This document shows, piece by piece, positions 14,280 through 55,390 of a stretch of DNA of 64,000 nucleotides. A program made the position numbers and the translations under genes. The stretch lies in contig CAVANK010000001.1 in assembly GCA_963590075.1 (NCBI GenBank), forward strand, positions 5,394 through 69,393. Direction: 5' to 3'. Below the pieces are notes generated by a model that saw nothing but the letters and a program-made list of their open reading frames with translations, did no database searches and was not told the origin of the DNA. How positions within the stretch are numbered: the first letter of the stretch is position 1; each line of letters starts with the position of its first letter. Origin of the DNA: Eshraghiella crossota (GTDB taxonomy: Bacteria; Bacillota; Clostridia; Christensenellales; CAG-917).

Positions 14280-14775
14280 AACTTCTCTAAATGCAACTTT
14301 CCCCCTTCCTCACGGTGTTTGGACTTCGGCGTTTGCGCACCGCAATCCGCCTCGTTCGCTTTGGCTACAACACATTCACCGAATGTGTTGCTTAACGCGT
14401 CGCGCCCATATTCCGTTCCCCCTCTGCACTTCGTTTGAGGGAACCCACGGAACTGCTCCGCAGGGGGACACGCGACGCGATTGACTTCGTAACAATCGCT
14501 ATTCCGTCGCTTCGCTCCTTACGGCACGCGCATAATAGGAACATTTCTCTCATTATGCCACTGCGCTTTGTGCGCCAGCTACGCAACGACACGGCGCAGT
14601 CGCTTGTACTAATCGTCGAGCTTGGCGCTCGATGCGGTCGGCGCTTTGCGCCTCCACGCTCCGAATAAGTTACGGCAACTTAAACTTCAATAAACGGATG
14701 AAGAGCAAGGAAACACCCACCCGATACAAAACCCAACGTACAAGTCGTACGTGATTTTGTAGCGGATGGGTGATA
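14280..14775. repeat. GC-rich cluster of nested and serial hairpins inserted between pyrH and frr
   Basis: Perfect 10-bp hairpin at 14368-14390. Long-range pair GCGTCGCG (14397-14404) / CGCGACGC (14471-14478). ~18-bp imperfect hairpin at 14714-14772. Many GGCGC-TTT-GCGCC-type stems. Confidence 0.7.
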
Positions 14776-14802
14776 ACACAGCTATTCGCCGTTTAGTGAA
14801 GT

Positions 14803-17569: not shown

Positions 17570-17757
17570 ATGAAATAAGGGTATTTTTGAGGAATTTTTT
17601 GATTTTTTCCAAATATTCATAAAAATTTTTATAAAAACTGCGATATTTAGATGAAGAACAAGAAAGAGCCGTCCGAGTGGCAACCCTAATTTACTAATCG
17701 TAAATGAGTTGACAATCGAACGGCTCTGCCGAAGTTATTCGCTAAATAGCGCAGTTT

Positions 17758-18108
17758 TTAGTGGTGGCAGCAAGAGCAATGCTCATCATCGCAACAATCG
17801 CAACCGCCTTCCATCTTCTCAACCTCTGCCATAAACTCGTCGAAAACGCGTTGGAGCAAATCTTCGTCCTCGATTGCGATAAAGACGTCGTTGCCTTCTT
17901 CGTTCTCACCGATTTCGTAAATAAGCACTTCGTCCTCTTCGATGTCGTCGAGTTTTTGGACGGGTTTCATAACGATAAACCATCTGTTGTCAACGTCGAG
18001 AGTCGCAAGATGATAAAATTCTTCGTCTTTGTCCGTTTCTTCGTTGTAAAGAGTGATGATATCGTCGTCTTCTTCCATATTGGTTTGGTCTTCAAAAAAA
18101 TCTGCCAT
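17758..18108 (-). CDS. DUF1292 (YrzB-like) protein with a Cys/His-rich C-terminal tail
   Basis: 116 aa. Acidic DUF1292 pattern (ITLYNEETDKDEEFYHLATLDVDNRWFIVMKPV). Downstream of ruvX as in the Bacillus yrrK-yrzB pair. Tail is GGCDCCDDEHCSCCHH. Confidence 0.75.
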   Translation of the reverse strand: MADFFEDQTNMEEDDDIITLYNEETDKDEEFYHLATLDVDNRWFIVMKPVQKLDDIEEDEVLIYEIGENEEGNDVFIAIEDEDLLQRVFDEFMAEVEKMEGGCDCCDDEHCSCCHH

Positions 18109-21147: not shown

Positions 21148-21239
21148 AATTCACCTTATTTTGCTATTTTTTCCCAACTAGATTTCTGCATTTCATTATA
21201 TCTCTAACAAAAGTTTATAGCATTTACCCAAAAATCCAA

Positions 21240-21323
21240 TCTTCCTTATGTCATTGCGAGCGCAAGCGTGGCAGTAGACAATGGACTTGTGAGTTGTCTT
21301 TGCCATAGCGACGACTTTTGCTC
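21240..21323. repeat. mosaic intergenic repeat, locus B (modules shared with 23200-23680)
   Basis: CCTTATGTCATTGCGAG is the reverse complement of 23541-23557. The 50-nt module at 21266-21315 is the reverse complement (~85% by eye) of 23214-23263. Confidence 0.8.
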
Positions 21324-21373
21324 AATATCACTTGTGCTAGCACAAATATCACTGCACGAAGTGCAATATCACT
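21324..21373. repeat. array of 3 x AATATCACT separated by two unrelated perfect mini-hairpins
   Basis: AATATCACT-TGTGC.TA.GCACA-AATATCACT-GCAC.GAA.GTGC-AATATCACT. The last copy overlaps the spoVAD stop codon. Confidence 0.85.
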
Positions 21374-22565
21374 ATAACAATTGCTCAATCTCCAACGTTA
21401 CGGCATGCGCAATACCGGGGATCGTTTCCTTTTGAAGAGGCGTATCTTTGTTGAGCAATGCGCCCGTGGGCACGATAAGCACCCTTTTGAGTTCTCCGCG
21501 TTGCATTTTTTTGAGAATATAGCCGTTGAAAGCGGTATTTACGCACCCCGCACCCGATCCGCCTTGATACGTTTTTTGTTCGGGTGTAAAATAACTTGCA
21601 CCGCAATCCATATAGTATTTGGGCAAAATATACCCTTCTTTGGACAGCAAATATTCAAGCGTTTGCTTGCCGAAACGCCCCAAATCTCCCGTAAATATGC
21701 CGTCGTAATAGTCAAAGGAGCGTCCGCTTTCTTTGAAATGCGTAAGAATAGTATCGCAAGCGGCGGGAGCCATTGCCGCGCCCATATTTGCCTCGTCGTC
21801 TATACCGAGGTCTACGACTCGACCGAGCGTTCCGCCCGTGACTTTGACGCAGTAGGCGTTGGGTTTGAGATAGTCGTTGTTTTCCTTTTCAAAGTTGCTT
21901 TCTATGATATTTGACTTCTCTTTATTGATGATTTTCTTTTGTTTTTCAATGCTTTTCTTATATTTTTGGAGCGTTTTTTCGTCGATATTCATACCCTCGT
22001 CAATGGCAATGATATCGTCCTCGTACACTCTTTCGTTGATAAGCCTAGGTTTTTGACTGCTCAAAACAGTGCATCCCGCGCCCGTAACAGTCCATTGCGC
22101 GGTAGGCGTGCGTTGATTGCCGAGTTCAAGCGGAAAACGATATTGTCTTTCCGCCGAAGCAAAGTGGCTTGACGTCGAACATGTCACGTTATCGGCATAT
22201 CCGCCCGATATGAGCATTGCGCCGACGATTAAACTTTCGCTAAAAGTAGAGCAAGCGTTGTATAGTCCTAAAAACGCCGACGGAAAATTGCGCGCGGCAA
22301 GCGACGTTGCGGTCAATTCGTTGAGCAAGTCCCCGCCTAGCATTATGTCGATATCCTCTCTTTTAAGTCCCGCTTTTTTGATTGCACCGCTTACGGCGTC
22401 TCGTTGCATCTTGCTTTCGCACTTCTCGTAGGACTTTTCGCACCACAAATCGTTGTCGAGCACGATATCGAAACAATTGCCGAAATTGCCGTCACCCTCT
22501 TTCGGACCTACGATGGTAAATCCGCTCTTTATATACACGGGTTTTGAAATCTCAAAAGTTCGCAT
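21372..22565 (-). CDS. spoVAD: stage V sporulation protein AD (thiolase-like), with internal K/E/N-rich insert
   Basis: SpoVAD N-terminus (SGFTIVGPKEGDG). Start trimmed to the ATG at 22565, 9 nt after the spoVAC stop; the ORF track extends to 22667. Confidence 0.9.
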   Translation of the reverse strand: MRTFEISKPVYIKSGFTIVGPKEGDGNFGNCFDIVLDNDLWCEKSYEKCESKMQRDAVSGAIKKAGLKREDIDIMLGGDLLNELTATSLAARNFPSAFLGLYNACSTFSESLIVGAMLISGGYADNVTCSTSSHFASAERQYRFPLELGNQRTPTAQWTVTGAGCTVLSSQKPRLINERVYEDDIIAIDEGMNIDEKTLQKYKKSIEKQKKIINKEKSNIIESNFEKENNDYLKPNAYCVKVTGGTLGRVVDLGIDDEANMGAAMAPAACDTILTHFKESGRSFDYYDGIFTGDLGRFGKQTLEYLLSKEGYILPKYYMDCGASYFTPEQKTYQGGSGAGCVNTAFNGYILKKMQRGELKRVLIVPTGALLNKDTPLQKETIPGIAHAVTLEIEQLL

Positions 22566-22573
22566 TTTGCACC

Positions 22574-23014
22574 TCACATCACAAAATAGCCGATAAAGCC
22601 GACCACAAAACTTGCCACCTCGCCGAAAACGATAATAGGACCTGCGATGACGAACATCTTTGCGCATACACCGAAGAACACACCCTCACGGTTGTATTCC
22701 ATTGCGGGTGAAACCACGGAGTTTGCAAATCCCGTGATGGGGATAATCGAGCCACCGCCCGCGAAATGCCCCAGTTTGTCGTAAAATCCGAGCGCGGTGA
22801 AAAGGCTCCCGAGGAAAATCATTACGCAACTTTCCCACGTCGCGACGTCCTTTTTGCTCATATCCTCAAAAATGAGTTTGACGATATCTCCCACGCCCTC
22901 ACCGATACAACAAATAATTCCGCCCACGAGAAAAGCGGCGAACAGCGTGCGCACCATAGGAGACTTGGGAGCGTTGTCTTTTACGTACTTTTGATACTCT
23001 TTCCTATCTAACAT
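22574..23014 (-). CDS. spoVAC: stage V sporulation protein AC
   Basis: 146 aa, 4-TM SpoVAC pattern (GGSIIPITGFANSV). AGGA RBS. Confidence 0.9.
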   Translation of the reverse strand: MLDRKEYQKYVKDNAPKSPMVRTLFAAFLVGGIICCIGEGVGDIVKLIFEDMSKKDVATWESCVMIFLGSLFTALGFYDKLGHFAGGGSIIPITGFANSVVSPAMEYNREGVFFGVCAKMFVIAGPIIVFGEVASFVVGFIGYFVM

Positions 23015-23204
23015 ACATCGTCCTTTTTTGCGCCCTTATCGACCTTTTTAGCGGAATTTTCAACGTCGAAAAGAAGGTCTTGCCTTACCCCCTCAACGTT
23101 GGGATTATTCTTGAAATAAACCTCTTTATCTTCGACGTTTTTGGAAAAGAGCGCGTCCATACGGCATAATATTTGCCACAAATCGCGCTTTTTAATCATC
23201 TAAA

Positions 23205-23580
23205 CGAACAAATGACGTCGCTGTGGAAAAGACAACTCACCAGTTCATTGTCTAACGCCACGCTAGCCTTATTGTTCTTAACCAAGCAACCAGTTGCTCA
23301 AACGGCATCGCGGTGATGACAACAAACGCATTTGTTGCCATAAACCGCATTTGTTCTCGCAACTACTACCGCACAGCCAATCTTCGCTATCAGTTCAAGC
23401 AGGAATAAATAATCTTTCCACAGTTTCGCAAGATTGTCTGTTTGGTGTGAATTGGATAAAAACTTAATCCACAGTTTCGCTATATCGCTTGCTTGGTGTG
23501 TGCGCCTTCGGCTAGATTGCCACGTCGCAATATTCATTGCTCCTCGCAATGACATAAGGAAGATTGAAATATTCCGCAAC
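23205..23580. repeat. mosaic intergenic repeat, locus C (between sigF and spoVAC)
   Basis: Shares modules with loci B, D, E, F and G (see findings). Has an internal duplication of CCACAGTTTCGC...TTGGTG. Many short perfect hairpins. Confidence 0.8.
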
Positions 23581-23675
23581 TTGCGCCGACGGCGCAAATA
23601 TCACTTTTAGCCTTAGGCTAAAAATATCACTGTTGCGGTAGCAACAATATCACTTGCCGAATGGCAAATATCACT
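23581..23675. repeat. array of 4 hairpin + (A)ATATCACT units
   Basis: TTGCGCC.GAC.GGCGCAA-ATATCACT, TTTAGCC.TTA.GGCTAAA-AATATCACT, GTTGC.GGTA.GCAAC-AATATCACT, TGCC.GAAT.GGCA-AATATCACT. The array ends 6 nt from the sigF stop codon. Confidence 0.85.
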
Positions 23676-23681
23676 CTTAAT

Positions 23682-25325: not shown

Positions 25326-25403
25326 CGGGGTGTAGCGCAGTTTGGCTAGCGCGTCTGATTTGGGTTCAGAAGGTCGGGAGTTCGAATCTCTTCACCCCGA
25401 CCA
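25326..25403 (+). tRNA. tRNA-Pro (anticodon TGG)
   Basis: Cloverleaf read by eye: acceptor CGGGGTG/CACCCCG, anticodon loop TTTGGGT, T-loop GGTTCGAAT-like, encoded CCA. Confidence 0.9.
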
Positions 25404-25428
25404 CGAACACACTCACACACGATGATTC

Positions 25429-25505
25429 GGGCCTTTAGCTCAGTTGGTTAGAGCAGTCGGCTCATAACCGATCGGTCCGCGGTTCGAGTCCGTGAAGGCC
25501 CACCA
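25429..25505 (+). tRNA. tRNA with CAT anticodon (elongator Met or lysidine-modified Ile2)
   Basis: Acceptor GGGCCTT/AAGGCCC, anticodon loop CTCATAA, encoded CCA. I cannot distinguish Met from Ile2 by eye. Confidence 0.85.
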
Positions 25506-25524
25506 TAAATAAAAAAATTTGTTT

Positions 25525-25601
25525 GGCCCGGTAGTACAGTTGGTTAGTACGCCAGCCTGTCACGCTGGAGGTCAGGGGTTCGAGCCCCCTCCGGGTCGCC
25601 A
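25525..25601 (+). tRNA. tRNA-Asp (anticodon GTC)
   Basis: Acceptor GGCCCGG/CCGGGTC, anticodon loop CTGTCAC, encoded CCA. Confidence 0.9.
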
Positions 25602-25606
25602 TCCAA

Positions 25607-25640
25607 ATATGTGGCAGTGACAACCGTCACTGCCATATAT
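25607..25640 (+). other. strong hairpin in the spacer between tRNA-Asp and tRNA-Phe
   Basis: TGGCAGTGAC-AACC-GTCACTGCCA extended by A/T pairs. No T-run follows. Confidence 0.6.
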
Positions 25641-25677
25641 CTAAAAAAGGGATTTCTTCCCTACCAAGCTTTTATAT

Positions 25678-25753
25678 GCCTCGGTAGCTCAGGTGGTAGA
25701 GCAAGGGACTGAAAATCCCTGTGTCGGTGGTTCGAGTCCGCCCCGAGGCACCA
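25678..25753 (+). tRNA. tRNA-Phe (anticodon GAA)
   Basis: Acceptor GCCTCGG/CCGAGGC, anticodon loop CTGAAAA, encoded CCA. Confidence 0.9.
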
Positions 25754-25765
25754 ACAACTGAATAC

Positions 25766-25841
25766 GCTGGTGTAGCTCAATAGGCAGAGCAACTGATTTG
25801 TAATCAGTAGGTTGTTGGTTCGATTCCGATCACCAGCTCCA
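25766..25841 (+). tRNA. tRNA-Thr (anticodon TGT)
   Basis: Acceptor GCTGGTG/CACCAGC, anticodon loop TTTGTAA, encoded CCA. Confidence 0.9.
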
Positions 25842-25844
25842 TAC

Positions 25845-25929
<85 letters not shown>

Positions 25930-25984: not shown

Positions 25985-26195
25985 GACAGTATTTTTTTGG
26001 TACTACCGCAAGCAAAGAGAGACGCAAGCGCGTAGCATTTGCGGAAATCGTGCGTAGCGGACATAGTAAACAAAAAAGACACGCAGTGTCCCGTGCAACG
26101 CACGGTGTGCGACAGCACTATTTGTTTGCGTAGACGGCACAACAATACCGCAATTTCGCAAGATTGTCTGTTTGGTGCGCCTTACGGCGTATTTT
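25985..26195. repeat. mosaic intergenic repeat, locus D (downstream of the tRNA operon)
   Basis: Starts with TACTACCGCA as in loci C and E. The 24 nt at 26154-26177 are identical to 23424-23447. Confidence 0.7.
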
Positions 26196-26227
26196 TAGGT
26201 GTTCCATATTTTATTACTTAAATATTA

Positions 26228-26258
26228 AAAAAAACACATCGAATTGATGTGCATAAAA
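26228..26258 (-). terminator. strong minus-strand rho-independent terminator with no annotated gene upstream
   Basis: On the minus strand: CACATC-AATTC-GATGTG followed by a run of 8 T. Confidence 0.6.
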
Positions 26259-26545
26259 CAGTTCAACGTTTCTTATTATCAAAGCAATTTATTAGGCGTT
26301 TGTTAAATTCACTTGGTTAGATATACGCTTTTCTTGGTTATGGCGTTTAATGTTTCCATCATTACGATCATCGACGAGGTATAAGCGAGTCGGGCAATCC
26401 GATGCTTATAAACGATAGATAGATTATCGCAAGCAAAGTCCGTACATATATTTCCAACCTTTCGTCGTGGAAATTTTAACATACTTGCACTCGTTTATCA
26501 ATAAGTTAAATAATAAATTTAATGTATCATACCATACGCTTAAGT

Positions 26546-26574
26546 TTGACATTGCGCGCGTATAGGCGCATAAT
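26546..26574 (+). promoter_or_regulatory. sigma-A-type promoter in front of the 40-aa ORF
   Basis: TTGACA (26546-26551), 17 nt, CATAAT (26569-26574). The -10 is part of the inverted repeat CATAATG-TGCG-CATTATG, which includes the ATG. Confidence 0.45.
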
Positions 26575-26583
26575 GTGCGCATT

Positions 26584-26706
26584 ATGAAGGAAAAATTCAC
26601 TGCTCGCTCGCTTATAGGTCTCGGACTTCTCACCGCGGGCATAGGCTTGATAATCTGTTTCATTCTATTATCCCAAAAGCATATCGTCCAACAGTCTGCA
26701 ACTTAA
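26584..26706 (+). CDS. candidate 40-aa hydrophobic peptide (MKEKFTARSLIGLGLLTAGIGLIICFILLSQKHIVQQSAT)
   Basis: Found by hand; it is below the ORF-track cutoff. One predicted TM. A TTGACA-17-CATAAT promoter ends 10 nt before the ATG and there is no SD, so it may be leaderless. Confidence 0.3.
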   Translation: MKEKFTARSLIGLGLLTAGIGLIICFILLSQKHIVQQSAT

Positions 26707-26830
26707 TCGCATCCTGTTTTTATATCTTTGATATCGATAAAATACAAAACCTTTCGTTTGCGTTTGCGTTCGTCAAAAGCCCGCAATCACTCCGATTTGC
26801 TTACAATTTTTGATATATTGCCAAGATATA

Positions 26831-26859
26831 TTGACGTTTTACGCATAGTTTGATACAAT
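26831..26859 (+). promoter_or_regulatory. sigma-A-type promoter of the recombinase gene
   Basis: TTGACG, 17 nt, TACAAT. The -35 overlaps the second of two GATATATTG direct repeats (26812-26820, 26825-26833). Confidence 0.5.
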
Positions 26860-26888
26860 TATCTTATCCAATCACGCGAGGAAAATTT

Positions 26889-27962
26889 ATGACAAACTAT
26901 TTCACCGAAAGGGACAAATACCTTGCAAAGCGTTTGCGCGTTTTGAGAGACCAACTTCCAGAGTTTTGCGAGGAGTTTTTTGTGGGTATCGAACCGCAGA
27001 CTTCACCGCTTACGAGGCTCAATTATGCGTACGATTTGCGCATATTCTTTGACTATTTGCTCAAAAACGTGCGTGCTTTCAGAGATTATAAGGACGTTTA
27101 CGATTTCGTCGTAGAGGATTTGTCAAAAATCACTCTCGGCAACTTGGAAGCATACGTGGAATACCTCTCTTATTACGAGTTTGAAGGCAAAGAATACACC
27201 AACGCCGAGAAAGGCAAAGCGCGCAAACTTTCCACTATCCGCACCTTTTTCAAGTACTATTTCAATCACGACCGTATTCCGTCCAACGTATCGGCAAAAC
27301 TCACTATGCCCAAACTTCACGACAAGGACATTATCCGCCTTGAAAAAAAGGAAGTCGAACGCATACTCGACGCGGCGGAAACGGGCAACGGTATGACGGA
27401 ACATCAGCGCAAAATTCAACGCAACACTCGTGCGCGCGATTACGCAATCGTGACGTTGCTTTTGGGTACGGGCATACGTGTCAGTGAGTGCGTGGGGCTC
27501 AATCTCAACGATATAGATTTTGAGACAAACGCCTTCACTGTCACTCGAAAAGGCGGAAATCAAGCCATTTTGTACTTCGGAGACGAAGTTCGCGACGCAC
27601 TTTTGACCTATATCGACACCGAGCGCAAGGCACTTATAGACAGATGTCAAAAGATAAACACGGGAGACAACGACGCGCTGTTCTTGTCGCTACAAGTCAA
27701 GCGTATTTGCGTGCGTGCGGTGGAAAACATCGTCAAAAAGTACGCTCAAACCGCCGCTCCGCTCAAAAAAATATCTCCGCACAAACTTCGTAGCACGTAC
27801 GGAACGAACCTATACCGCGCCACGGGTGATATATATCTCGTTGCCGACGTATTGGGACACCGAGACGTCAACACCACAAAAAAACACTACGCCGCAATCG
27901 AGGAAGATCACCGCAAACTTGCCGCAAAGGTAGTCAAACTTCGTAGCAACGACGACGATTAA
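26889..27962 (+). CDS. tyrosine site-specific recombinase (XerC/XerD/phage-integrase family)
   Basis: 357 aa from the ATG at 26889 (GAGGA RBS). N-terminal SAM-like domain. Catalytic R (TGIRVSE), HxxR (HKLRST), H...Y (GHRDVNTTKKHY). Confidence 0.85.
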   Translation: MTNYFTERDKYLAKRLRVLRDQLPEFCEEFFVGIEPQTSPLTRLNYAYDLRIFFDYLLKNVRAFRDYKDVYDFVVEDLSKITLGNLEAYVEYLSYYEFEGKEYTNAEKGKARKLSTIRTFFKYYFNHDRIPSNVSAKLTMPKLHDKDIIRLEKKEVERILDAAETGNGMTEHQRKIQRNTRARDYAIVTLLLGTGIRVSECVGLNLNDIDFETNAFTVTRKGGNQAILYFGDEVRDALLTYIDTERKALIDRCQKINTGDNDALFLSLQVKRICVRAVENIVKKYAQTAAPLKKISPHKLRSTYGTNLYRATGDIYLVADVLGHRDVNTTKKHYAAIEEDHRKLAAKVVKLRSNDDD

Positions 27963-28284: not shown

Positions 28285-30246
28285 ATGGATATTTCTTCGG
28301 TCAACAGCGACCTCATACGCGGTAACGTCACGACAATCATTCTCGGTTGTCTGTGGGAAGGCGACAAGTACGGCTATGAGATTATGAAAGAAATCGAGGA
28401 CAAGAGCAATTCGCAATACGTCCTCAAACAAGCCACTCTTTACAATCAGCTCAAACGACTTGAAAAGCAAGGGCTCGTTTCCTCATACGACGGCAATCCC
28501 GACGATACCGGCGGTGGCAAACGCAGATACTATTCCCTCACGGGCGAAGGCAAAGCCTATCTCAAAAAGGAAAAGAGCGAATACGAGTATTCGCGCACCA
28601 TTTTGGACAAACTCGTTTCGGCGCAAGAGTACGACTTCACCGCGCCTATTCCCTTCGATGCGAGCGAATTGCGCCCCTACGCCAAACGCGACACCGAAGA
28701 CAAGCCCAAAGTGGTTTATAAGGAAAAACTCGTCGAGAAAAAAGTTTTCTTTGACCGCTACGGCAACGAAGTGAGCGAAGAGGACGCCGACGCACTCAAA
28801 GAAAAGGCACTTGCCGACGACGAGCAAGCACGCCTCACCGAAGAACAACTCAAAAAAGCGGAAGACGACGCCCGCCAAAAGGACGAGCAACTTCGCTTGA
28901 AAGAGGAGCAAGCTCAAGAAAATGCCGAAAAATTGCGTCAACAAGAGGAAGAAGCTCGCCAAAAGGACGAGCAATTGCGCCAAACGGAAGAGCAATTGAG
29001 AAAGTCCGAAGAAGACCGCCAATTCGTCAAATCTATGCTCCGTCAAATGGAAGAAGAAAAGATGCGTGCCGAAGAGCAAAAGCGTCTTGAAGAAGAGGAA
29101 CGCAAGCGCAAAGAGGAAGAAGAGCAAAAACGCCTTGCCGAAGAAGCGGAGCGCAAACGCCAAGAGCAAGCAAAACCCGCTCAAACTCTTGAAGAAATGT
29201 TTGCCAAACTCGATGCGGAGAGCGAATACAATCGTGGCGAACAACCTCTTCATGTATATCACTACGACAACGTTCAGCCTCAAGAGCATACATACCTCAA
29301 CGGCTACAACGCTCAACCCGAACAAACCACGGGACGCGCGCAAACGTCGCTCAAAGACATTTTCAAGCAACTTGACGAAAAAGAGGCTCAAATAGACGAC
29401 AAACTTGCCAAAGAGCAAGAGGAGCAACAAGCTATCGAGGCGCAACGCATTGCCGAGCAACGAGCGATGCAAACCGCACAAGAGCAAGCTTACGCCCCCA
29501 CCCCGCAATCCGACGCGCACTATATGCCTGCCGAGATCGAAACTCGCAATCAAGCGTACGACGAACCGAGCGATAAAGGCAAATTCGTGACGTCCGCGGT
29601 CGTCAATCGTCAAGAAGGCGGATTTGAATACGAAAAAGACGACGTCAACTATCGCGAATTCTTCGTATCTCTTGCCGACCAAAATCAAAAAGAAGAGGTC
29701 AAAGAGGAAAAACCGCAACAACAAGAGTATTCCGACAGCGACATCAAGACGAGATTGTATGCAAAGGGCTTCAAAATCCGCCCGTACGACAGAGGCAACA
29801 CCTCGGAGTACTACACGTTCAACTTCATACAATCCAATCGTCTCAACCGCGATACTTTCCTCATCATTCTTGCGTTCTTCGTCGCAGAAGTCGCAATTAT
29901 GTGGCTATCGCTGTTTTCAAGAATAAGCTACGCTTATTTCTTGCCGATTTTGCTCGTGGGAAGCGCGCTTTGCCTCATTCCGACGGTTATCTATATGATG
30001 AACCCGACAAGGCGCAAACGTGCCAATTTCAATTTCAAACTGTCAATTCTCAACCGCACGATGTTGTTTATAGAATTGACCGTGGTATGTATCCTCATCG
30101 GCTTCTTCGGACTCGGAGCAAACGTCAACGATATGGATCTCATTCTTATGTCGATAATACTTCCGATGGTGCTCCTCACCAACCTCCCGTTGAGCTCTCT
30201 CATCTACTGGTTGCTTTACAGAACCAGAAAATACCATACTGCATAG
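28285..30246 (+). CDS. PadR-family winged-helix domain fused to a long E/K/Q coiled-coil region and a C-terminal 4-TM anchor
   Basis: 653 aa. N-terminal ~100 aa are PadR-like (GYEIMKEI...ATLYNQLKRLEKQGLV...RRYYSLTGEG). aa ~170-330 are heptad-like EEQLR/ARQKDEQLR repeats. The last ~115 aa have four hydrophobic helices. Confidence 0.75.
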   Translation: MDISSVNSDLIRGNVTTIILGCLWEGDKYGYEIMKEIEDKSNSQYVLKQATLYNQLKRLEKQGLVSSYDGNPDDTGGGKRRYYSLTGEGKAYLKKEKSEYEYSRTILDKLVSAQEYDFTAPIPFDASELRPYAKRDTEDKPKVVYKEKLVEKKVFFDRYGNEVSEEDADALKEKALADDEQARLTEEQLKKAEDDARQKDEQLRLKEEQAQENAEKLRQQEEEARQKDEQLRQTEEQLRKSEEDRQFVKSMLRQMEEEKMRAEEQKRLEEEERKRKEEEEQKRLAEEAERKRQEQAKPAQTLEEMFAKLDAESEYNRGEQPLHVYHYDNVQPQEHTYLNGYNAQPEQTTGRAQTSLKDIFKQLDEKEAQIDDKLAKEQEEQQAIEAQRIAEQRAMQTAQEQAYAPTPQSDAHYMPAEIETRNQAYDEPSDKGKFVTSAVVNRQEGGFEYEKDDVNYREFFVSLADQNQKEEVKEEKPQQQEYSDSDIKTRLYAKGFKIRPYDRGNTSEYYTFNFIQSNRLNRDTFLIILAFFVAEVAIMWLSLFSRISYAYFLPILLVGSALCLIPTVIYMMNPTRRKRANFNFKLSILNRTMLFIELTVVCILIGFFGLGANVNDMDLILMSIILPMVLLTNLPLSSLIYWLLYRTRKYHTA

Positions 30247-30309
30247 CAAAAATCGTCGAAGTGGCAATGGCAACACGCACTCGTGCGTATTGCCAATAGC
30301 CACTCTTGA

Positions 30310-30525
30310 TTTATTGCTCTACTACCGCGCAACCGATACACGCTATCAGTTCGTGCAAGGATAAAACTCCCGCCACAGTTGCGCTATATCGCTTGCTTGG
30401 TGTTTCGGCTACCGCCTAAATTGCCACGCTACCGCTCGCAATGATATGGAATATTCCACTTGTCATTCCGAGGAGCAACGATAGTTGCACCGTGGGAATC
30501 CAGCGTAGCGCAAAAAATATCACTA
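30310..30525. repeat. mosaic intergenic repeat, locus E (upstream of the tRNA-Trp promoter)
   Basis: Collinear with 23360-23560. The 31 nt at 30373-30403 match 23469-23499 with 1 mismatch. Long hairpin at 30435-30472 around the palindrome GGAATATTCC. Ends with a single AATATCACT (30516-30524). Confidence 0.8.
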
Positions 30526-30612: not shown

Positions 30613-30687
30613 AGGGGAGTGGCTCAACGGTAGAGCAACGGTCTCCAAAACCGTTGGTTGCGTGTTCGAATCGCGTCTCCCCTGCCA
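30613..30687 (+). tRNA. tRNA-Trp (anticodon CCA)
   Basis: Acceptor AGGGGAG/CTCCCCT, anticodon loop CTCCAAA, T-loop TTCGAAT, encoded CCA. Confidence 0.9.
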
Positions 30688-31093
30688 CGAAGAAGTACTT
30701 TGGTACTTCTTCTTTTTTTGCAGTCTTTCCGCGATTAGAACACGCAACGCATACGCGACGGAACTACACTCCTTGCGTCTGCGGTTTCGTGTGACATTTC
30801 GTTTTGCAAATTACATTTGCACACTCCATTATTCCAGTCGCCTTGCGACCTCACGAATCGCGTCTCCCCTGCCACGAAGAAGTACTTTGGTACTTCTTCT
30901 TTTTTTGCAGTCTTTCCGCGATTAGAACACGCAACGCATACGCGACGGAACTACACTCCTTGCGTCTGCGGTTTCGTGTGACATTTCGTTTTGCAAATTA
31001 CATTTGCACACTCCATTATTCCAGTCGCCTTGCGACCTCACGAATCGCGTCTCCCCTGCCACGAAGAAGTACTTTGGTGCTTCTTCTTTTTTA
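30667..31093 (+). repeat. 187-bp tandem repeat (2 full identical units plus a ~50-bp third start), each beginning with the last 21 nt of tRNA-Trp
   Basis: Unit starts at 30667, 30854 and 31041. Units 1 and 2 matched at every base when compared by eye. Confidence 0.9.
30689..30719 (+). terminator. rho-independent terminator of tRNA-Trp (first of three copies)
   Basis: GAAGAAGTAC-TTTG-GTACTTCTTC followed by T7. Repeated at 30876-30906 and, with one stem change, at 31063-31093. Confidence 0.85.
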
Positions 31094-48816: not shown

Positions 48817-49035
48817 TTAACACCTCTCGTGTCGTGATTAAAATAATTATATTATTTTAGCCGTATACTGTCAATCGCAAAAGTTTTGCACCCCCGCGAC
48901 CTATGGGATTATAATGCCAAACAGACAATCTGTCAACTCATTGCGACAAAGAAAAAAATTGTTTTTTACACAAAGTCGATTATTGTCAATTTTTGGAAGC
49001 GCGCACCATAAAATATACAACCGGAGGGGTTGTTA

Positions 49036-49731
49036 ATGGCTTTGGAAAGTTTGCTCGCGCTTTTGAAAAATCTCATCATATTTTCTTCCTACGTGACTGA
49101 AAAGAGTTCCTTTCCAAAGCCTCTCTCTAAGGAAAAAGAAAAAGAATATCTCGAAAAATCCGCCCAAGGCGACAAAGAAGCAAAGGAAATCCTCGTCAAG
49201 CACAATTTGCGACTAGTGGCGCATATCGCAAAGAAATATTCCAACTACGGAGACAACGACGAGCTTATATCAATCGGCTCAATCGGACTTATCAAGGCAA
49301 TCGAGAGTTTCAAGCCCGACAAAGGCACTCAACTTGCCACGTATGCGTCCCGTTGCATTGAAAACGAGATATTGATGACTATGCGCACAAGCAAAAAACA
49401 TCGCTCCAACGTCTCTCTCAACGAGCCGATAGGCGTCGATAAGGACGGCAACGAACTTGTCATTATGGATATGCTTTGCGACAATTGTTCCGTCATAGAG
49501 GACGTCGAAAACTCCATAATGATGGAAAAACTGCTTCGCATCACCAAAGCGATTTTGGACGAGCGCGAATATGAAATTATACGTCTTCGTTACGGTCTCG
49601 GCGGTTGCGGTGCGCTCACGCAACGAGAAGTGGCAAAAAAATTCGATATTTCCCGCTCTTACGTGTCGAGAATAGAGAAAAAAGCCCTTGAAAAAATCAA
49701 ACGCTCGGTCAATAAGGAAGATTTGATGTAA
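49036..49731 (+). CDS. sigK: RNA polymerase sporulation sigma factor SigK (pro-sigma-K), uninterrupted
   Basis: Pro-sequence plus SYV..K.SFPKPLS, HNLRLVAHIAKKY, ATYASRCIENEILM, ISRSYVSRIEKKAL. GGAGGGG RBS 6 nt before the ATG at 49036. Confidence 0.9.
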   Translation: MALESLLALLKNLIIFSSYVTEKSSFPKPLSKEKEKEYLEKSAQGDKEAKEILVKHNLRLVAHIAKKYSNYGDNDELISIGSIGLIKAIESFKPDKGTQLATYASRCIENEILMTMRTSKKHRSNVSLNEPIGVDKDGNELVIMDMLCDNCSVIEDVENSIMMEKLLRITKAILDEREYEIIRLRYGLGGCGALTQREVAKKFDISRSYVSRIEKKALEKIKRSVNKEDLM

Positions 49732-52578: not shown

Positions 52579-52880
52579 CTCCGCAACTGCGCCGTCGGCG
52601 CACAAACCGAGCAAGAGATATATCAAGACTTGTGTAAAAGTATCGTGAAATATTCCATCAGCGCACGCAGTGCGCCTAACGGCTCTCGTAGACAGGCGGA
52701 GCCGTAGTTTATAACTCCACAAAGAGTTGTTGTGAGCATCAACTTTCTATCCGAGCAACCGCCGAGCCGTCTCAAAGTTGCGAGACCTTACGCACAAAAG
52801 CAATGCTCCGATTGCTTTTGTGTAGGACGTTTGCGCCTAAATATGTGTCAAGTTATCTCGTAGAGATAAGTGACACGTGT
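52579..52880. repeat. mosaic intergenic repeat / hairpin cluster, locus G (between nrdR and ylmC)
   Basis: CTCCGCAACTGCGCCGTCGGCGCA resembles 23571-23597. Perfect hairpins at 52588-52602, 52661-52675, 52679-52705 and 52794-52821 (11-bp stem), and an imperfect one at 52845-52876. Confidence 0.7.
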
Positions 52881-52935
52881 TTAGCACTCGGCGCAATTCT
52901 TATCATAAAATACGCGCGCGCGAATAAAATATGGT

Positions 52936-54676: not shown

Positions 54677-55390
54677 TCAACCGAGTTTTTGCATATCCTT
54701 TTTCAAGTTTTCCACAATTTTCTTTTCAAGGCGGGATATATACGATTGCGATATTCCCATCATATCGGCAATTTCTTTTTGCGTCATCTCGTCCTTGCCG
54801 TATAGCCCGAAGCGCAAAGACAATATCTGCCTCTCTCTCGGCGGGAGTTTTTCAAACGTGTTGCGGAGTATTCTGCACTCGTCGGAGGACTCCACGTCGT
54901 TGTAAACGCAATCGGCGTCCGTGCCCAAAATATCGCTCAAAAGCAACGTATTCCCTTCCCAATCGACGTTGAGAGGCTCGTCAAGCGATATTTCCGAGCG
55001 AGTTTTACTGGTCTTGCGCAAGTGCATCAATATCTCGTTCTCGATGCAACGAGACGCAAACGTGGCAAGCTTGATATTCTTGTCGGGATTGTAGCTTCCA
55101 ACCGCCTTGATAAGTCCTATCGTGCCGATGGACACCAAATCGTCCATATCTACGCCCGTGTTGTCAAACTTCTTTGCGATATACACCACGAGGCGCAAGT
55201 TGTGCTCGATGAGTTTTAGACGAGCGTCCTCGTCTCCGTCAAGAAACTTGCGCACGGTGGACTGTTCTTCTTCGAGTGTGAGAGGCGTCGGCAACGAACC
55301 CGTCTGCGATATGTAATTGACGTAGGACGACTCTTTTATGCCGAGCCACTCCAAAAGTTTTTGAAACAATGCTCTCAATTTTCCTTTCAT
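54677..55390 (-). CDS. sigE: RNA polymerase sporulation sigma factor SigE (pro-sigma-E)
   Basis: 237 aa. Pro-sequence then YI..SGSLPTPL, HNLRLVVYIAKKF, ISQSYISRLEKK. Downstream of spoIIGA. Confidence 0.93.
   Translation of the reverse strand: MKGKLRALFQKLLEWLGIKESSYVNYISQTGSLPTPLTLEEEQSTVRKFLDGDEDARLKLIEHNLRLVVYIAKKFDNTGVDMDDLVSIGTIGLIKAVGSYNPDKNIKLATFASRCIENEILMHLRKTSKTRSEISLDEPLNVDWEGNTLLLSDILGTDADCVYNDVESSDECRILRNTFEKLPPRERQILSLRFGLYGKDEMTQKEIADMMGISQSYISRLEKKIVENLKKDMQKLG

Follow-up and report, generated by a model that had tools for sequence, protein, structure and literature searches.

Introduction

Bacterial interspersed mosaic elements (BIMEs), which are built from repetitive extragenic palindromes (REP, or palindromic units, PU), are extragenic mosaics in which palindromic units are joined by short conserved linkers and which lie after genes inside transcription units; the number of their units varies between strains, and they act as hairpins at RNA 3' ends and as protein-binding sites. 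BOX (boxA-boxB(n)-boxC, Streptococcus pneumoniae), ERIC and Correia elements are short modular non-coding repeats that are transcribed with their neighbours, fold as RNA and have no transposase. The attC sites of integrons, which accompany small gene cassettes, are recombination sites set by their folded structure, with the short inverse cores RYYYAAC...GTTRRRY. Here we describe a mosaic of hairpin-dense intergenic repeats in 64,000 nucleotides of Eshraghiella crossota (GenBank assembly GCA_963590075.1, contig CAVANK010000001.1, positions 5,394 to 69,393; hereafter the window, the whole stretch of DNA that was analysed), centred on the spacer between sigF and the spoVA genes.

Two described systems are particularly relevant to these repeats. 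Gut-1 (Rfam RF01706) is known from human-gut metagenomes only, with no sequenced organism, as a probable non-coding RNA, and its published description gives no host, context or function (PMC2864571); our literature search on Gut-1 RNA found nothing beyond this 2010 paper. The 23S rRNA of Coxiella carries an intervening sequence (IVS), described as a selfish 428-nt element with an S23p open reading frame (ORF); RNase III excises it, and immediately upstream of the gene a heptamer is repeated in tandem in varying number; rRNA intervening sequences with S23p are described as selfish and horizontally moved, and the S23p of Xanthomonas is a homopentamer (PMC4990558). On balance, we are inclined to read the window repeats as non-autonomous, lineage-restricted, structured intergenic members of an IVS-like selfish cassette family, in which the hairpin/linker arrays would be the inverted arms.

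Similarities Between the Loci and Composition of the Mosaic

The window comes from the core chromosome of a Clostridia-type spore former (46% G+C), with rimP, infB, rbfA, dxr, rseP, ispG, frr and tsf, with spoIIAA-spoIIAB-sigF followed by spoVAC-spoVAD-spoVAEb, with a spoIIGA-sigE-sigG region and with ftsA-ftsZ. Two spacers are central here: locus C (23200-23681), which runs from the sigF stop codon to the start of a 63-aa gene heading the spoVA genes, and locus A (21148-21371), between spoVAD and spoVAEb; all the genes bordering them are on the minus strand.

A sequence-only reading of the window had listed six similarities between intergenic loci, and all six were reproduced when each locus was compared with the whole window by blastn-short, from which the E-values in this section are taken. 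The hairpin at 21265-21313 matches the reverse complement of 23216-23264 (88% over 49 nt, E = 1e-8), and in the repeat search these arms extend to 62 nt at 84% (21261-21323 against the reverse complement of 23206-23267). An exact inverted match given as 17 nt is in fact longer, as 21237-21260 equals the reverse complement of 23543-23566 (24/24, E = 5e-8). The stretches 23469-23499 and 30373-30403 agree at 97% over 31 nt (E = 1e-9), and the collinearity claimed for the surrounding segments is real because nhmmer puts a whole module, Mc, at both 23366-23447 and 30322-30402; within it, 23424-23447 recurs without a mismatch at 26154-26177 (24/24). A 15-nt palindrome common to 23582-23596 and 52588-52602 is marginal when taken alone (E = 0.02), and it makes sense in context as the terminal hairpin and GTTGCGG tail of a hairpin array. 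The junction motif GAAATATTCC or GGAATATTCC lies at 23566-23575, 30448-30457 and 52647, and occurs again in related loci. The internal duplication seen in locus C was likewise found (23405-23449 against 23456-23500, 76%). The ORF at 23298-23597 on the minus strand, which had been taken as spurious, has no Pfam domain and just 15 unnamed relatives among 5.8 billion proteins, which is consistent with that view, and on these grounds a protein-coding reading of the region was rejected.

The picture of a hairpin-dense, modular, non-coding repeat family in intergenic DNA, with modules in varying orders and orientations between loci, is thus supported. Seven window intervals are common to at least three non-syntenic loci of related genomes, and five of them carry the modules in question (21262-21373, 23205-23678, 26147-26188, 30243-30513 and 52646-52897). 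The most regular feature had been absent from the earlier list: AATATCACT occurs nine times in the window against 0.35 expected, and its copies are the linkers between short perfect hairpins at 21320-21388 and 23581-23676, the second array beginning just past the end (23580) of the region first described.

Module edges were obtained by stacking blastn matches from related loci (denoted by L and a number) onto locus C, where they are sharp. At least four types of module make up the mosaic, namely X-Mc, Y, the palindromic junction GGAATATTCC and hairpin/linker arrays. The modules of the window are the following, beginning with locus C:

23205-23291, plus strand: X hairpin, helices P1-P4 of X-Mc (sharp pile-up edges at 23205 and 23291, nhmmer, covarying pairs)
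23293-23362, plus strand: Ma, a second, divergent X-type hairpin (pile-up edges; the Ma and X models match the same hairpins in L132/L144)
23363-23449, plus strand: Mc, the second X-Mc domain, which a long-range helix closes (about 90 copies aligned from related loci)
23454-23524, plus strand: half-Mc, the duplicated 3' half of Mc with a short-hairpin remnant (repeat search, nhmmer)
23525-23566, minus strand: Y hairpin, reading CCTTATGTCATTGCGAGGAGCAATGAATATTGCGACGTGGCAATC on the minus strand (sequence)
23566-23580, no strand assigned: junction, the palindromic GAAATATTCC and GCAAC, on the minus strand the array tail GTTGCGGAATATTTC
23581-23676, minus strand: Gut-1-type array with four GUGAUAU linkers and four hairpins, starting 7 nt after the sigF stop
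21237-21262, plus strand: Y fragment, AATCTTCCTTATGTCATTGCGAG..., fused to X via a common CGTGGCA (nhmmer Y match 21238-21260)
21261-21323, minus strand: X copy without the Mc domain, directly following the array on the minus strand (nhmmer; [GTGATAT]TGAGCAAAAGTCG junction)
21320-21388, minus strand: Gut-1-type array with three GUGAUAU linkers (21325-31, 21346-52, 21366-72) and two hairpins
26137-26181, plus strand: solo half-Mc downstream of a six-tRNA cluster (24/24 to 23424-23447; nhmmer)
30245-30402, plus strand: X-Mc, the sole complete one in the window (locus E; nhmmer, alignment row)
30403-30457, plus strand: short hairpin, Y in reverse reading, GATTGCCACG...CTCGCAATGA, then GGAATATTCC (sequence and repeat search)
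30461-30501, plus strand: Y-type hairpin, the ATTCC/GGAAT variant TGTCATTCCGAGGAGCAACGATAGTTGCACCGTGGGAATCC (nhmmer Y match 30450-30488)
52579-52602, minus strand: solo terminal array hairpin and tail, TGCGCCGACGGCGCA GTTGCGGAG (15-nt match to 23582-23596)
52646-52897, plus strand: further mosaic modules, with GAAATATTCC, 'Z' (AGCGCACGCAGTGCGCCTAACG...GTAGACAGGCGGAGCC) and a reversed 3' module seen after X-Mc elsewhere

With its tail included, the pile-up span of the locus C array is 23566-23678. Read on the minus strand, locus A passes from the stop codon to a two-hairpin array, to X (Mc missing) and to a Y remnant, and the first linker of its array overlaps the spoVAD stop codon by one base (TA[G]TGATAT). 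Locus C passes on the same strand from the stop codon to the four-hairpin array, its tail, Y and an antisense X-Ma-Mc-halfMc; on the plus strand this equals a recurrent layout of X-Mc, Y, GGAATATTCC and inverse array, of which related loci contain five cases. The first bases of the locus E X-Mc overlap the TAG stop of an upstream PadR-like gene (offset +1), and orthologous copies of it are present in L141 and L137. The modules at 52646-52897 are common to up to 21 non-syntenic loci, and the same text stands beside X-type hairpins in L083 and L132.

The Y hairpin, with the text CATTGCGAG...GCCACG, has an outer stem that covaries between copies (ATTGC/GCAAT, ATTCC/GGAAT, ATTTC/GAAAT), with the flanks GAG...(inner hairpin)...CGTGG; a literature search with its core strings returned primers only. 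Module junctions fall on common strings, as where Y passes into X through CGTGGCA in locus A, and the palindrome GGAATATTCC terminates both arrays and X-Mc units. In L136, L110, L092 and locus A of the window, the X stem comes straight after a linker, at the position where an ordinary hairpin would stand. In L084, L128 and L092, 3' of X-Mc, GGAATATTCC is followed by AT-rich sequence with TTATTAATT repeats (AATTATTAATTATTAATTCTTAATTATTAATTAG), which may be another mosaic module.

Compared with BIMEs, the window mosaics are likewise extragenic, are made of palindromes joined by short conserved linkers, follow genes and have a variable number of units; however, here it is the linkers that are constant and the palindromes that are of many types, which is the reverse of BIMEs, and larger structured modules (X-Mc) sit inside the mosaic. 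The family also differs from REP, as no conserved palindrome of about 35 nt with a GTAG head and no alternating orientation were found, nor any REP-associated tyrosine transposase (RAYT) in the window and among 132 flanking genes. Like BOX, ERIC and Correia elements, it consists of short non-coding repeats of modular build, in which the number of internal modules varies, but there is no sequence similarity to the present modules and the module order is looser here, while the terminal inverted repeats and target duplications of Correia and ERIC were not found for the present elements. By analogy, CCRCAAC...GTTGYGG may resemble the inverse cores of attC, although GTTGCGG misfits GTTRRRY, no integron integrase was seen and there are no cassette arrays. 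From the proposal of a REP/BIME-like family, or one like miniature inverted-repeat transposable elements (MITEs), the modular shuffling stands, while REP hallmarks, terminal inverted repeats, target duplications and an autonomous parent were not found in the window and the related loci.

Gut-1 Hairpin/Linker Arrays

The mosaic is built from modules with sharp, reusable edges, of which the hairpin/linker arrays fall into the Gut-1 RNA family. The sequence-only reading could name no described family and held that its interpretation would suffer if modules proved to be parts of a known annotated element; for the arrays, including the palindrome common to 23582-23596 and 52588-52602, this is the case, so that the objection applies in part. 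On the minus strand the window arrays match RF01706 with 41.5 bits (23593-23676, E = 4e-6) and 39.1 bits (21320-21388, E = 1.7e-5), both of them below the gathering score of 50 bits, and 11 arrays in related loci pass it with 51.1-59.7 bits; because these clade homologues pass, the window copies are regarded as degenerate or short members and the family holds for the array type. The alignment of the locus C array covers model positions 1-77 of 77, and at 23566-23676 the Gut-1 format (at least three tandem hairpins, a GUGAAAU-like linker and a GUUGCGG-like tail) is represented by four linkers, four hairpins and GTTGCGGAATATTTC.

The arrays of the window's clade agree with Gut-1 in their tandem short hairpins, in the GUGAAAU/GUGAUAU linker, in the GUUGCGG end and in their origin from the human gut, and the Gut-1 seed alignment already has members with the GUGAUAU linker, followed by inverse AUAUCAC arrays. 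They differ in that one window copy has two hairpins only, besides the scores of both, and in that the motif here is one arm of a larger modular system in which the hairpins are shuffled cassettes. In 645 kb of the clade there are 38 arrays, 22 of which have exactly four linkers. Their hairpins represent about a dozen recurring types, shuffled in order in the first positions and separated by identical linkers of 7-9 nt, with CTCGC (16), GTTGC (11), TGCGC (10), TTGGC (10), TTGCC (9), GCGAC (6) and TTTGC (6) as the commonest 5' stem arms. The palindromes are 12-19 nt long and all of one orientation within an array, and the last hairpin is usually TCGCAC-NNN-GTGCGA, then GTTGYGGAATATTCC. Both window arrays are sense to the gene preceding them. 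The spoVAD-spoVAEb spacer has two hairpins in the window versus five in UMGS1366 (L146), with only the last one in common.

A link of the elements to phages was considered and rejected, as a viral scan for GTGATATT triplets gave 76 loci of which 75 were ordinary tandem repeats, mostly from giant-virus bins. The sole true GTGATAT hairpin array among 2.9 million viral contigs is at L005:1250-1800 (IMGVR_UViG_3300018495_002688); it starts 14 nt after the stop of a gene that looks phage-structural by eye and is followed by degenerate inverse units, and there is no four-helix-bundle gene near it.

Association of the Arrays with the S23p Gene

In UBA7571, a relative of the window organism, a forward array with GTTGAGGAATATT at its end and an inverse array with AGTATTCCACAAC at its start enclose a 117-aa gene with a ribosome-binding site (L084). 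Its protein matches Pfam PF05635 (23S rRNA-intervening-sequence protein, 9e-28) and TIGR02436 (four helix bundle protein, 7e-31), and the nearest solved structure is 2RLD. This four-helix-bundle family comprises at least 8000 clusters at E < 1e-10, with many homologues on contigs shorter than 3 kb, and in all three homologue lineages fetched by exact look-up the arrays adjoin or surround the gene. A metagenome scan with the family alignment supplied 80 more loci, and hairpin chains were sought with a generic detector (at least three perfect hairpins, linkers of 5-11 nt with a common 5-mer), which in the 64-kb window finds the locus C array only. A chain lies at most 190 nt from the gene in 16 of 45 S23p gene lineages, frequently with an inverted partner, and none was detected elsewhere in the S23p loci (38.5 kb near the gene versus 48.8 kb further away). 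The Rfam cut-off for Gut-1 is passed beside the gene in 8 of the 17 loci tested, with 57-68 bits. In 6 of 17 loci (L183, L222, L216, L239, L246 and L243), tRNA genes and a terminator are located immediately upstream of the double array and the gene, which suggests that the 3' flank of tRNA genes is a hot spot or target for array/four-helix-bundle cassettes.

Two layouts can be distinguished. In layout I, the forward array is followed by the gene and the inverse array; in layout II, a tRNA gene or a gene with a terminator is followed by the forward array, a centre of 15-20 nt, the inverse array, a TTTACA-N17-TATAAT-like promoter and then the gene. The linkers vary by lineage, yet they are always complementary between the two arms, with five different pairs:

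forward GTGATAT, inverse ATATCAC
forward TGATGT, inverse ACATCA
forward TTTAG, inverse CTAAA
forward GCTAAAT, inverse ATTTAGC
forward AGTTATATT, inverse AATATAACT

In minimum-energy folds the forward linkers pair with the inverse ones and the hairpins remain as side branches. The upstream region of L183, which represents the commonest lineage (33 loci), equals the Gut-1 seed sequence BAAZ01025322.1 except for a few mismatches, and that seed contig ended just before the four-helix-bundle gene.

As in the S23p intervening sequences of Coxiella and Leptospira, a PF05635 gene is enclosed by inverted sequences able to pair into a stem in L084/L173/L174, L226, L235 and L157. The present cassettes differ in standing outside rRNA (rRNA intervening sequences are inserted in helix 25 or 45 of 23S rRNA), after tRNA or protein-coding genes (there are no rRNA genes in the window or in the fetched loci), in having hairpin/linker arrays as arms and not plain inverted repeats, and, for the window, in having no S23p gene; processing by RNase III would apply to them by analogy. 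One of the fetched loci, L245, contains two tandem c-di-GMP-I riboswitches.

Structure and Placement of the X-Mc Element

X-Mc is a two-domain element of about 165-190 nt, with the canonical order X, directly Mc, then a short hairpin, and iterated nhmmer models found 46 full units. In the fold based on the alignment of 45 units, domain 1 is a long irregular hairpin (P1-P4), and in domain 2 a long-range helix of 16 pairs encloses an internal hairpin. The variants GCTATATCGCTTGC and GCAAGATTGTCTG in Mc are compensated by CGATA versus CAATCTT on the other strand (CGATA/TATCG versus CAATCTT/AAGATTG). Across the 53 pairs, 91.4% of cells are paired versus 82.3% after shuffling, double changes occur in 37 of 53 pairs versus 20.4 expected (0 of 500 shuffles reach 37), and controls with slid partners pair at 31-41%; since the copies are phylogenetically related, and the structure was derived from the same alignment as the test, these shuffle statistics overstate independence. 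The secondary structure is conserved through compensatory changes beyond the controls, as is generally expected of a structured RNA. When loci A/C, E and F were compared with Rfam, with E-values up to 10 allowed, X-Mc, Y and the Z/locus F modules gave no credible match, and matches to SAM_alpha, RAGATH-32, snoRNA and miRNA families were discarded as far below the respective cut-offs. An argument for RNA from UUCG tetraloops was also dropped, as the loops are UUC/GAA triloops closed by C-G pairs.

The elements start at or a few bases from stop codons and are preferentially co-oriented with the upstream gene. After orthologous sites were collapsed (73 sites), the upstream gene was co-oriented at 44 and opposed at 18 (p = 0.0013), with gene maps of the related loci that are crude longest-ORF maps. 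In 22 of 46 X-Mc units a long ORF ends -40 to +9 nt from the first bases of the element; in nine units, that of locus E included, the stop codon overlaps the start of the element (TAGCAAAA, TGAGCAAAA, TAAGCAAAA), and in about nine others the stop codon is followed by just a short pre-hairpin, TTGCGCCGAATGCGA. Several composites sit between a stop codon and an intrinsic terminator, e.g., after the acyl carrier protein (ACP)-like gene in L136/L110.

Distribution and Mobility

The family was sought in 185,579 species genomes with the 30-nt degenerate Mc pattern CCRCARTTKCGCNANATNGNNTGNTTGGTG, for which about 0.03 chance matches were estimated. The scan gave 78 loci, which belong without exception to 12 related assemblies from uncultured gut Clostridia ('Christensenella sp.' UBA7571, UBA767 and UBA7588; UMGS1366, 1170, 1043 and 1042; HGM11462; two Hadza metagenome-assembled genomes (MAGs); CAG:475; and CM_BacCAG2167). 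X-Mc is clade-restricted in these searches: among the 102 loci with a four-helix-bundle gene the X and Mc models match only sequences of the same clade. Over syntenic stretches the window shares about 95% identity with UBA7571 and about 93% with UMGS1366. An exact look-up of the 63-aa protein found two contigs only, GCA_963613715.1, in which the gene is identical and the spacer about as long (483 nt), and a short contig ending before the spacer.

A single MAG holds about 15 or more module loci. Orthologous copies are kept across genomes at about 83-95% identity, while array length and module content vary between genomes that are about 93% identical, and this rapid change proceeds through gain, loss and shuffling of units. 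The locus C spacer has 451 nt versus 55 nt in UMGS1366, and a second spacer has 712 nt in L135 versus 53-55 nt in two relatives (L080 and L133). In both filled/short pairs (the window versus L146, and L135 versus L080 and L133), the whole spacer is replaced or rearranged; no flanking direct repeat indicative of target-site duplication was visible at the two pairs, read base by base, one of them aligned, though older duplication events may be blurred because the compared genomes are 82-93% identical. X-Mc has no terminal inverted repeats, its 5' end being the base of helix P1 and its 3' end a variable module, and alignments of paralogues break off at position 0±3 at the 5' end but at several different positions at the 3' end.

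The statement that the window has no transposase or RAYT was borne out by Pfam on every window ORF of at least 120 aa, and none of these ORFs is a reverse transcriptase. Y1 transposases and RAYTs were absent also from the 132 genes flanking the 78 loci, beside which no transposase, RAYT, reverse transcriptase or other mobility family recurs, and 645 kb of related loci contained no autonomous parent with the same ends. A recurrent neighbour gene as mobiliser was rejected, as the neighbours are only housekeeping genes (Spo0A, GAPDH, PEPCK, ArgRS, RuvC and others). The sole recombinase among these window ORFs is a tyrosine recombinase at 26850-27962 (Phage_integrase, 4.7e-33), about 0.9 kb downstream of the six-tRNA cluster (25326-25929), with the solo half-Mc between them. 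The stretch 26136-26831 is a variable spot, with 695 nt in the window versus 1859 nt in the closest relative, L141.

Interpretation and Rival Explanations

According to the reading that we favour, that of non-autonomous repeats of an IVS-like selfish cassette family, a cassette may carry as cargo the S23p gene or a different module, for instance X-Mc, or may carry none, and the window would contain solo arms and cargo fragments only. The mosaic would arise by recombination or template switching at short common strings, i.e., linkers, GGAATATTCC and CGTGGCA. The elements would be co-transcribed in the 3' untranslated region of the upstream gene or in inter-cistronic RNA, where hairpins may be tolerated, neutral or stabilising, and paired arms could form a branched stem, by analogy with rRNA intervening sequences a substrate of RNase III.

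Several observations weigh against this reading. tblastn found no PF05635 gene in the window and its arrays are solo and unpaired, so it is through array homology that the window copies are linked to the cassette; among the 38 clade arrays just one pair encloses an S23p gene; and the association of arrays with S23p could reflect common insertion hot spots (tRNA 3' flanks) and not a functional unit. No insertion junction, mobilising enzyme or target duplication was identified. Transcription and a role at the RNA level are read from position and orientation, and the X-Mc of locus C is antisense to the sigF-spoVA genes. The reverse complement of X-Mc folds about equally well, and a strand call by folding energy or by G-U and A-C counts was not decisive (106 G-U versus 68 A-C cells, 43 of the G-U from one invariant pair). 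A crude detector found a downstream terminator in 12 of 47 sense copies without an intervening terminator, a result too weak for the claim that composites generally precede terminators, which was dropped.

A bolder form of the favoured reading, which we put forward tentatively and consider rather improbable as a whole, takes Gut-1 arrays altogether as the paired arms of a widespread IVS-like selfish cassette, with the pentameric four-helix-bundle S23p as usual cargo, and not as a free-standing small RNA. The 7-nt linkers, which vary jointly in the two arms and from one gene lineage to another, would be recognition or pairing elements, either as binding sites of S23p or by pairing to form a branched stem for RNase III, and the window arrays and X-Mc would be derivatives, i.e., solo arrays and a clade-specific RNA-like module that are non-autonomous and settle exactly 3' of stop codons.

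Among the alternatives, independent functional small-RNA genes are unlikely, though less so than the others: X-Mc would then be a multi-copy trans-acting or protein-binding RNA, the Gut-1 arrays would be multivalent GUGAUAU decoys held between clamping hairpins for an RNA-binding protein, and clustering would be secondary. The strong structural covariation of X-Mc, the Rfam class of Gut-1 (sRNA with covariation), the fixed four-linker format of most arrays and the conservation of orthologous copies at about 83-95% agree with this. However, no conserved promoter precedes X-Mc or the arrays, whose 5' flanks vary by copy, an intrinsic terminator does not directly follow the elements, truncation, duplication or fusion affects many copies, a single MAG has about 15 or more loci, the starts coincide with stop codons of unrelated genes, and the array hairpins are shuffled cassettes and not position-specific helices. 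Somewhat less likely still is mobilisation as REP/REPIN- or IS200/IS605-type hairpin elements (PATEs), by an HUH transposase (RAYT or TnpA) that is encoded elsewhere and recognises folded hairpins of single-stranded DNA. Such mobilisation predicts hairpin-based extragenic elements without terminal inverted repeats and target duplications, as seen here; the structure is equally conserved on both DNA strands, and a short GTGATAT motif adjoins each hairpin, loosely like the GTAG head of REP. Nevertheless, no Y1 transposase or RAYT lies in the window or adjoins the 78 loci, a dozen hairpin types in the arrays are hard to square with sequence-specific hairpin recognition, the 5' junction of X-Mc has no constant tetranucleotide target, and the orientation bias relative to transcription is not predicted, as such elements track replication direction.

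Classical MITEs, which would have arisen by deletion from an insertion sequence with a DDE transposase and would move in trans through cut-and-paste, are very improbable. The small size, multi-copy state and presence/absence differences between close relatives would suit them, and inverted arrays resemble multi-site transposon ends, but X-Mc has no terminal inverted repeats, filled and short sites show replacement of the whole spacer with no target-site duplication visible, no autonomous partner was seen in the 645 kb of related loci, and the conserved part of the array arms is just 7-9 nt. Finally, chance similarity, an assembly artefact or coding remnants, for which the marginal E-value (0.02) of the 15-nt palindrome alone and the probable origin of the DNA from a metagenome-assembled genome might speak, can be set aside, ruled out by within-window E-values down to 1e-9, by the same modules in 12 independent assemblies and by the covariation of X-Mc; the identical 483-nt spacer in GCA_963613715.1, an ORF across the region that has no domain and 15 relatives, and compensatory changes that argue against coding constraint point the same way.

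Other Observations in the Window and Related Loci

At 30667-31092, a 187-nt unit is present in 2.3 copies with 98-100% identity; each copy begins with the last ~20 nt of tRNA-Trp (30613-30687) and a terminator hairpin, GAAGAAGTACTTTGGTACTTCTTC, and these repeats look like scars of repeated duplication or integration at the tRNA 3' end. The intervals 14300-14789 and 17628-17758, which are common to about 20 non-syntenic loci of related MAGs and are not X, Mc, Y or Gut-1, both hold GATGAAGA(G/A)CAAG(G/A)AA and precede plus-strand ORFs without a Pfam domain; Rfam gave no match to them, and they may represent a further leader or repeat present in many copies. In the 712-nt filled spacer, a stretch of about 300 nt (L135:4900-5050, …GGTGGGAGAAATACCGGCG…) immediately before the downstream gene resembles a structured leader or a riboswitch.

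The longest ORF of spoVAD (21372-22667, minus strand) encodes 431 aa, and its match to the 329-position SpoVAD model of Pfam is split in two, which suggests an internal insertion or an N-terminal extension; the near-identical GCA_963613715.1 record calls spoVAD at 397 aa. The longest inverted repeat of the window (49248-49451 versus 54951-55154, 204 nt, 70%) was rejected as a repeat element, as it corresponds to two paralogous sporulation-type sigma factor genes (49030-49731, plus strand; 54677-55390, minus strand).

Conclusions

With these results the orphan Gut-1 RNA gains hosts and a fixed genomic context, and it is suggested that part of its apparent covariation comes from the shuffling of a small set of palindromes. 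For S23p/four-helix-bundle proteins and their role in rRNA intervening sequences, a recurrent, co-varying partner sequence makes function directly testable. X-Mc is a well-supported candidate for a structured RNA that is absent from Rfam. As the modules yield spurious ORFs and probably break assemblies, module models would clean the annotation of this abundant group of gut Clostridia.

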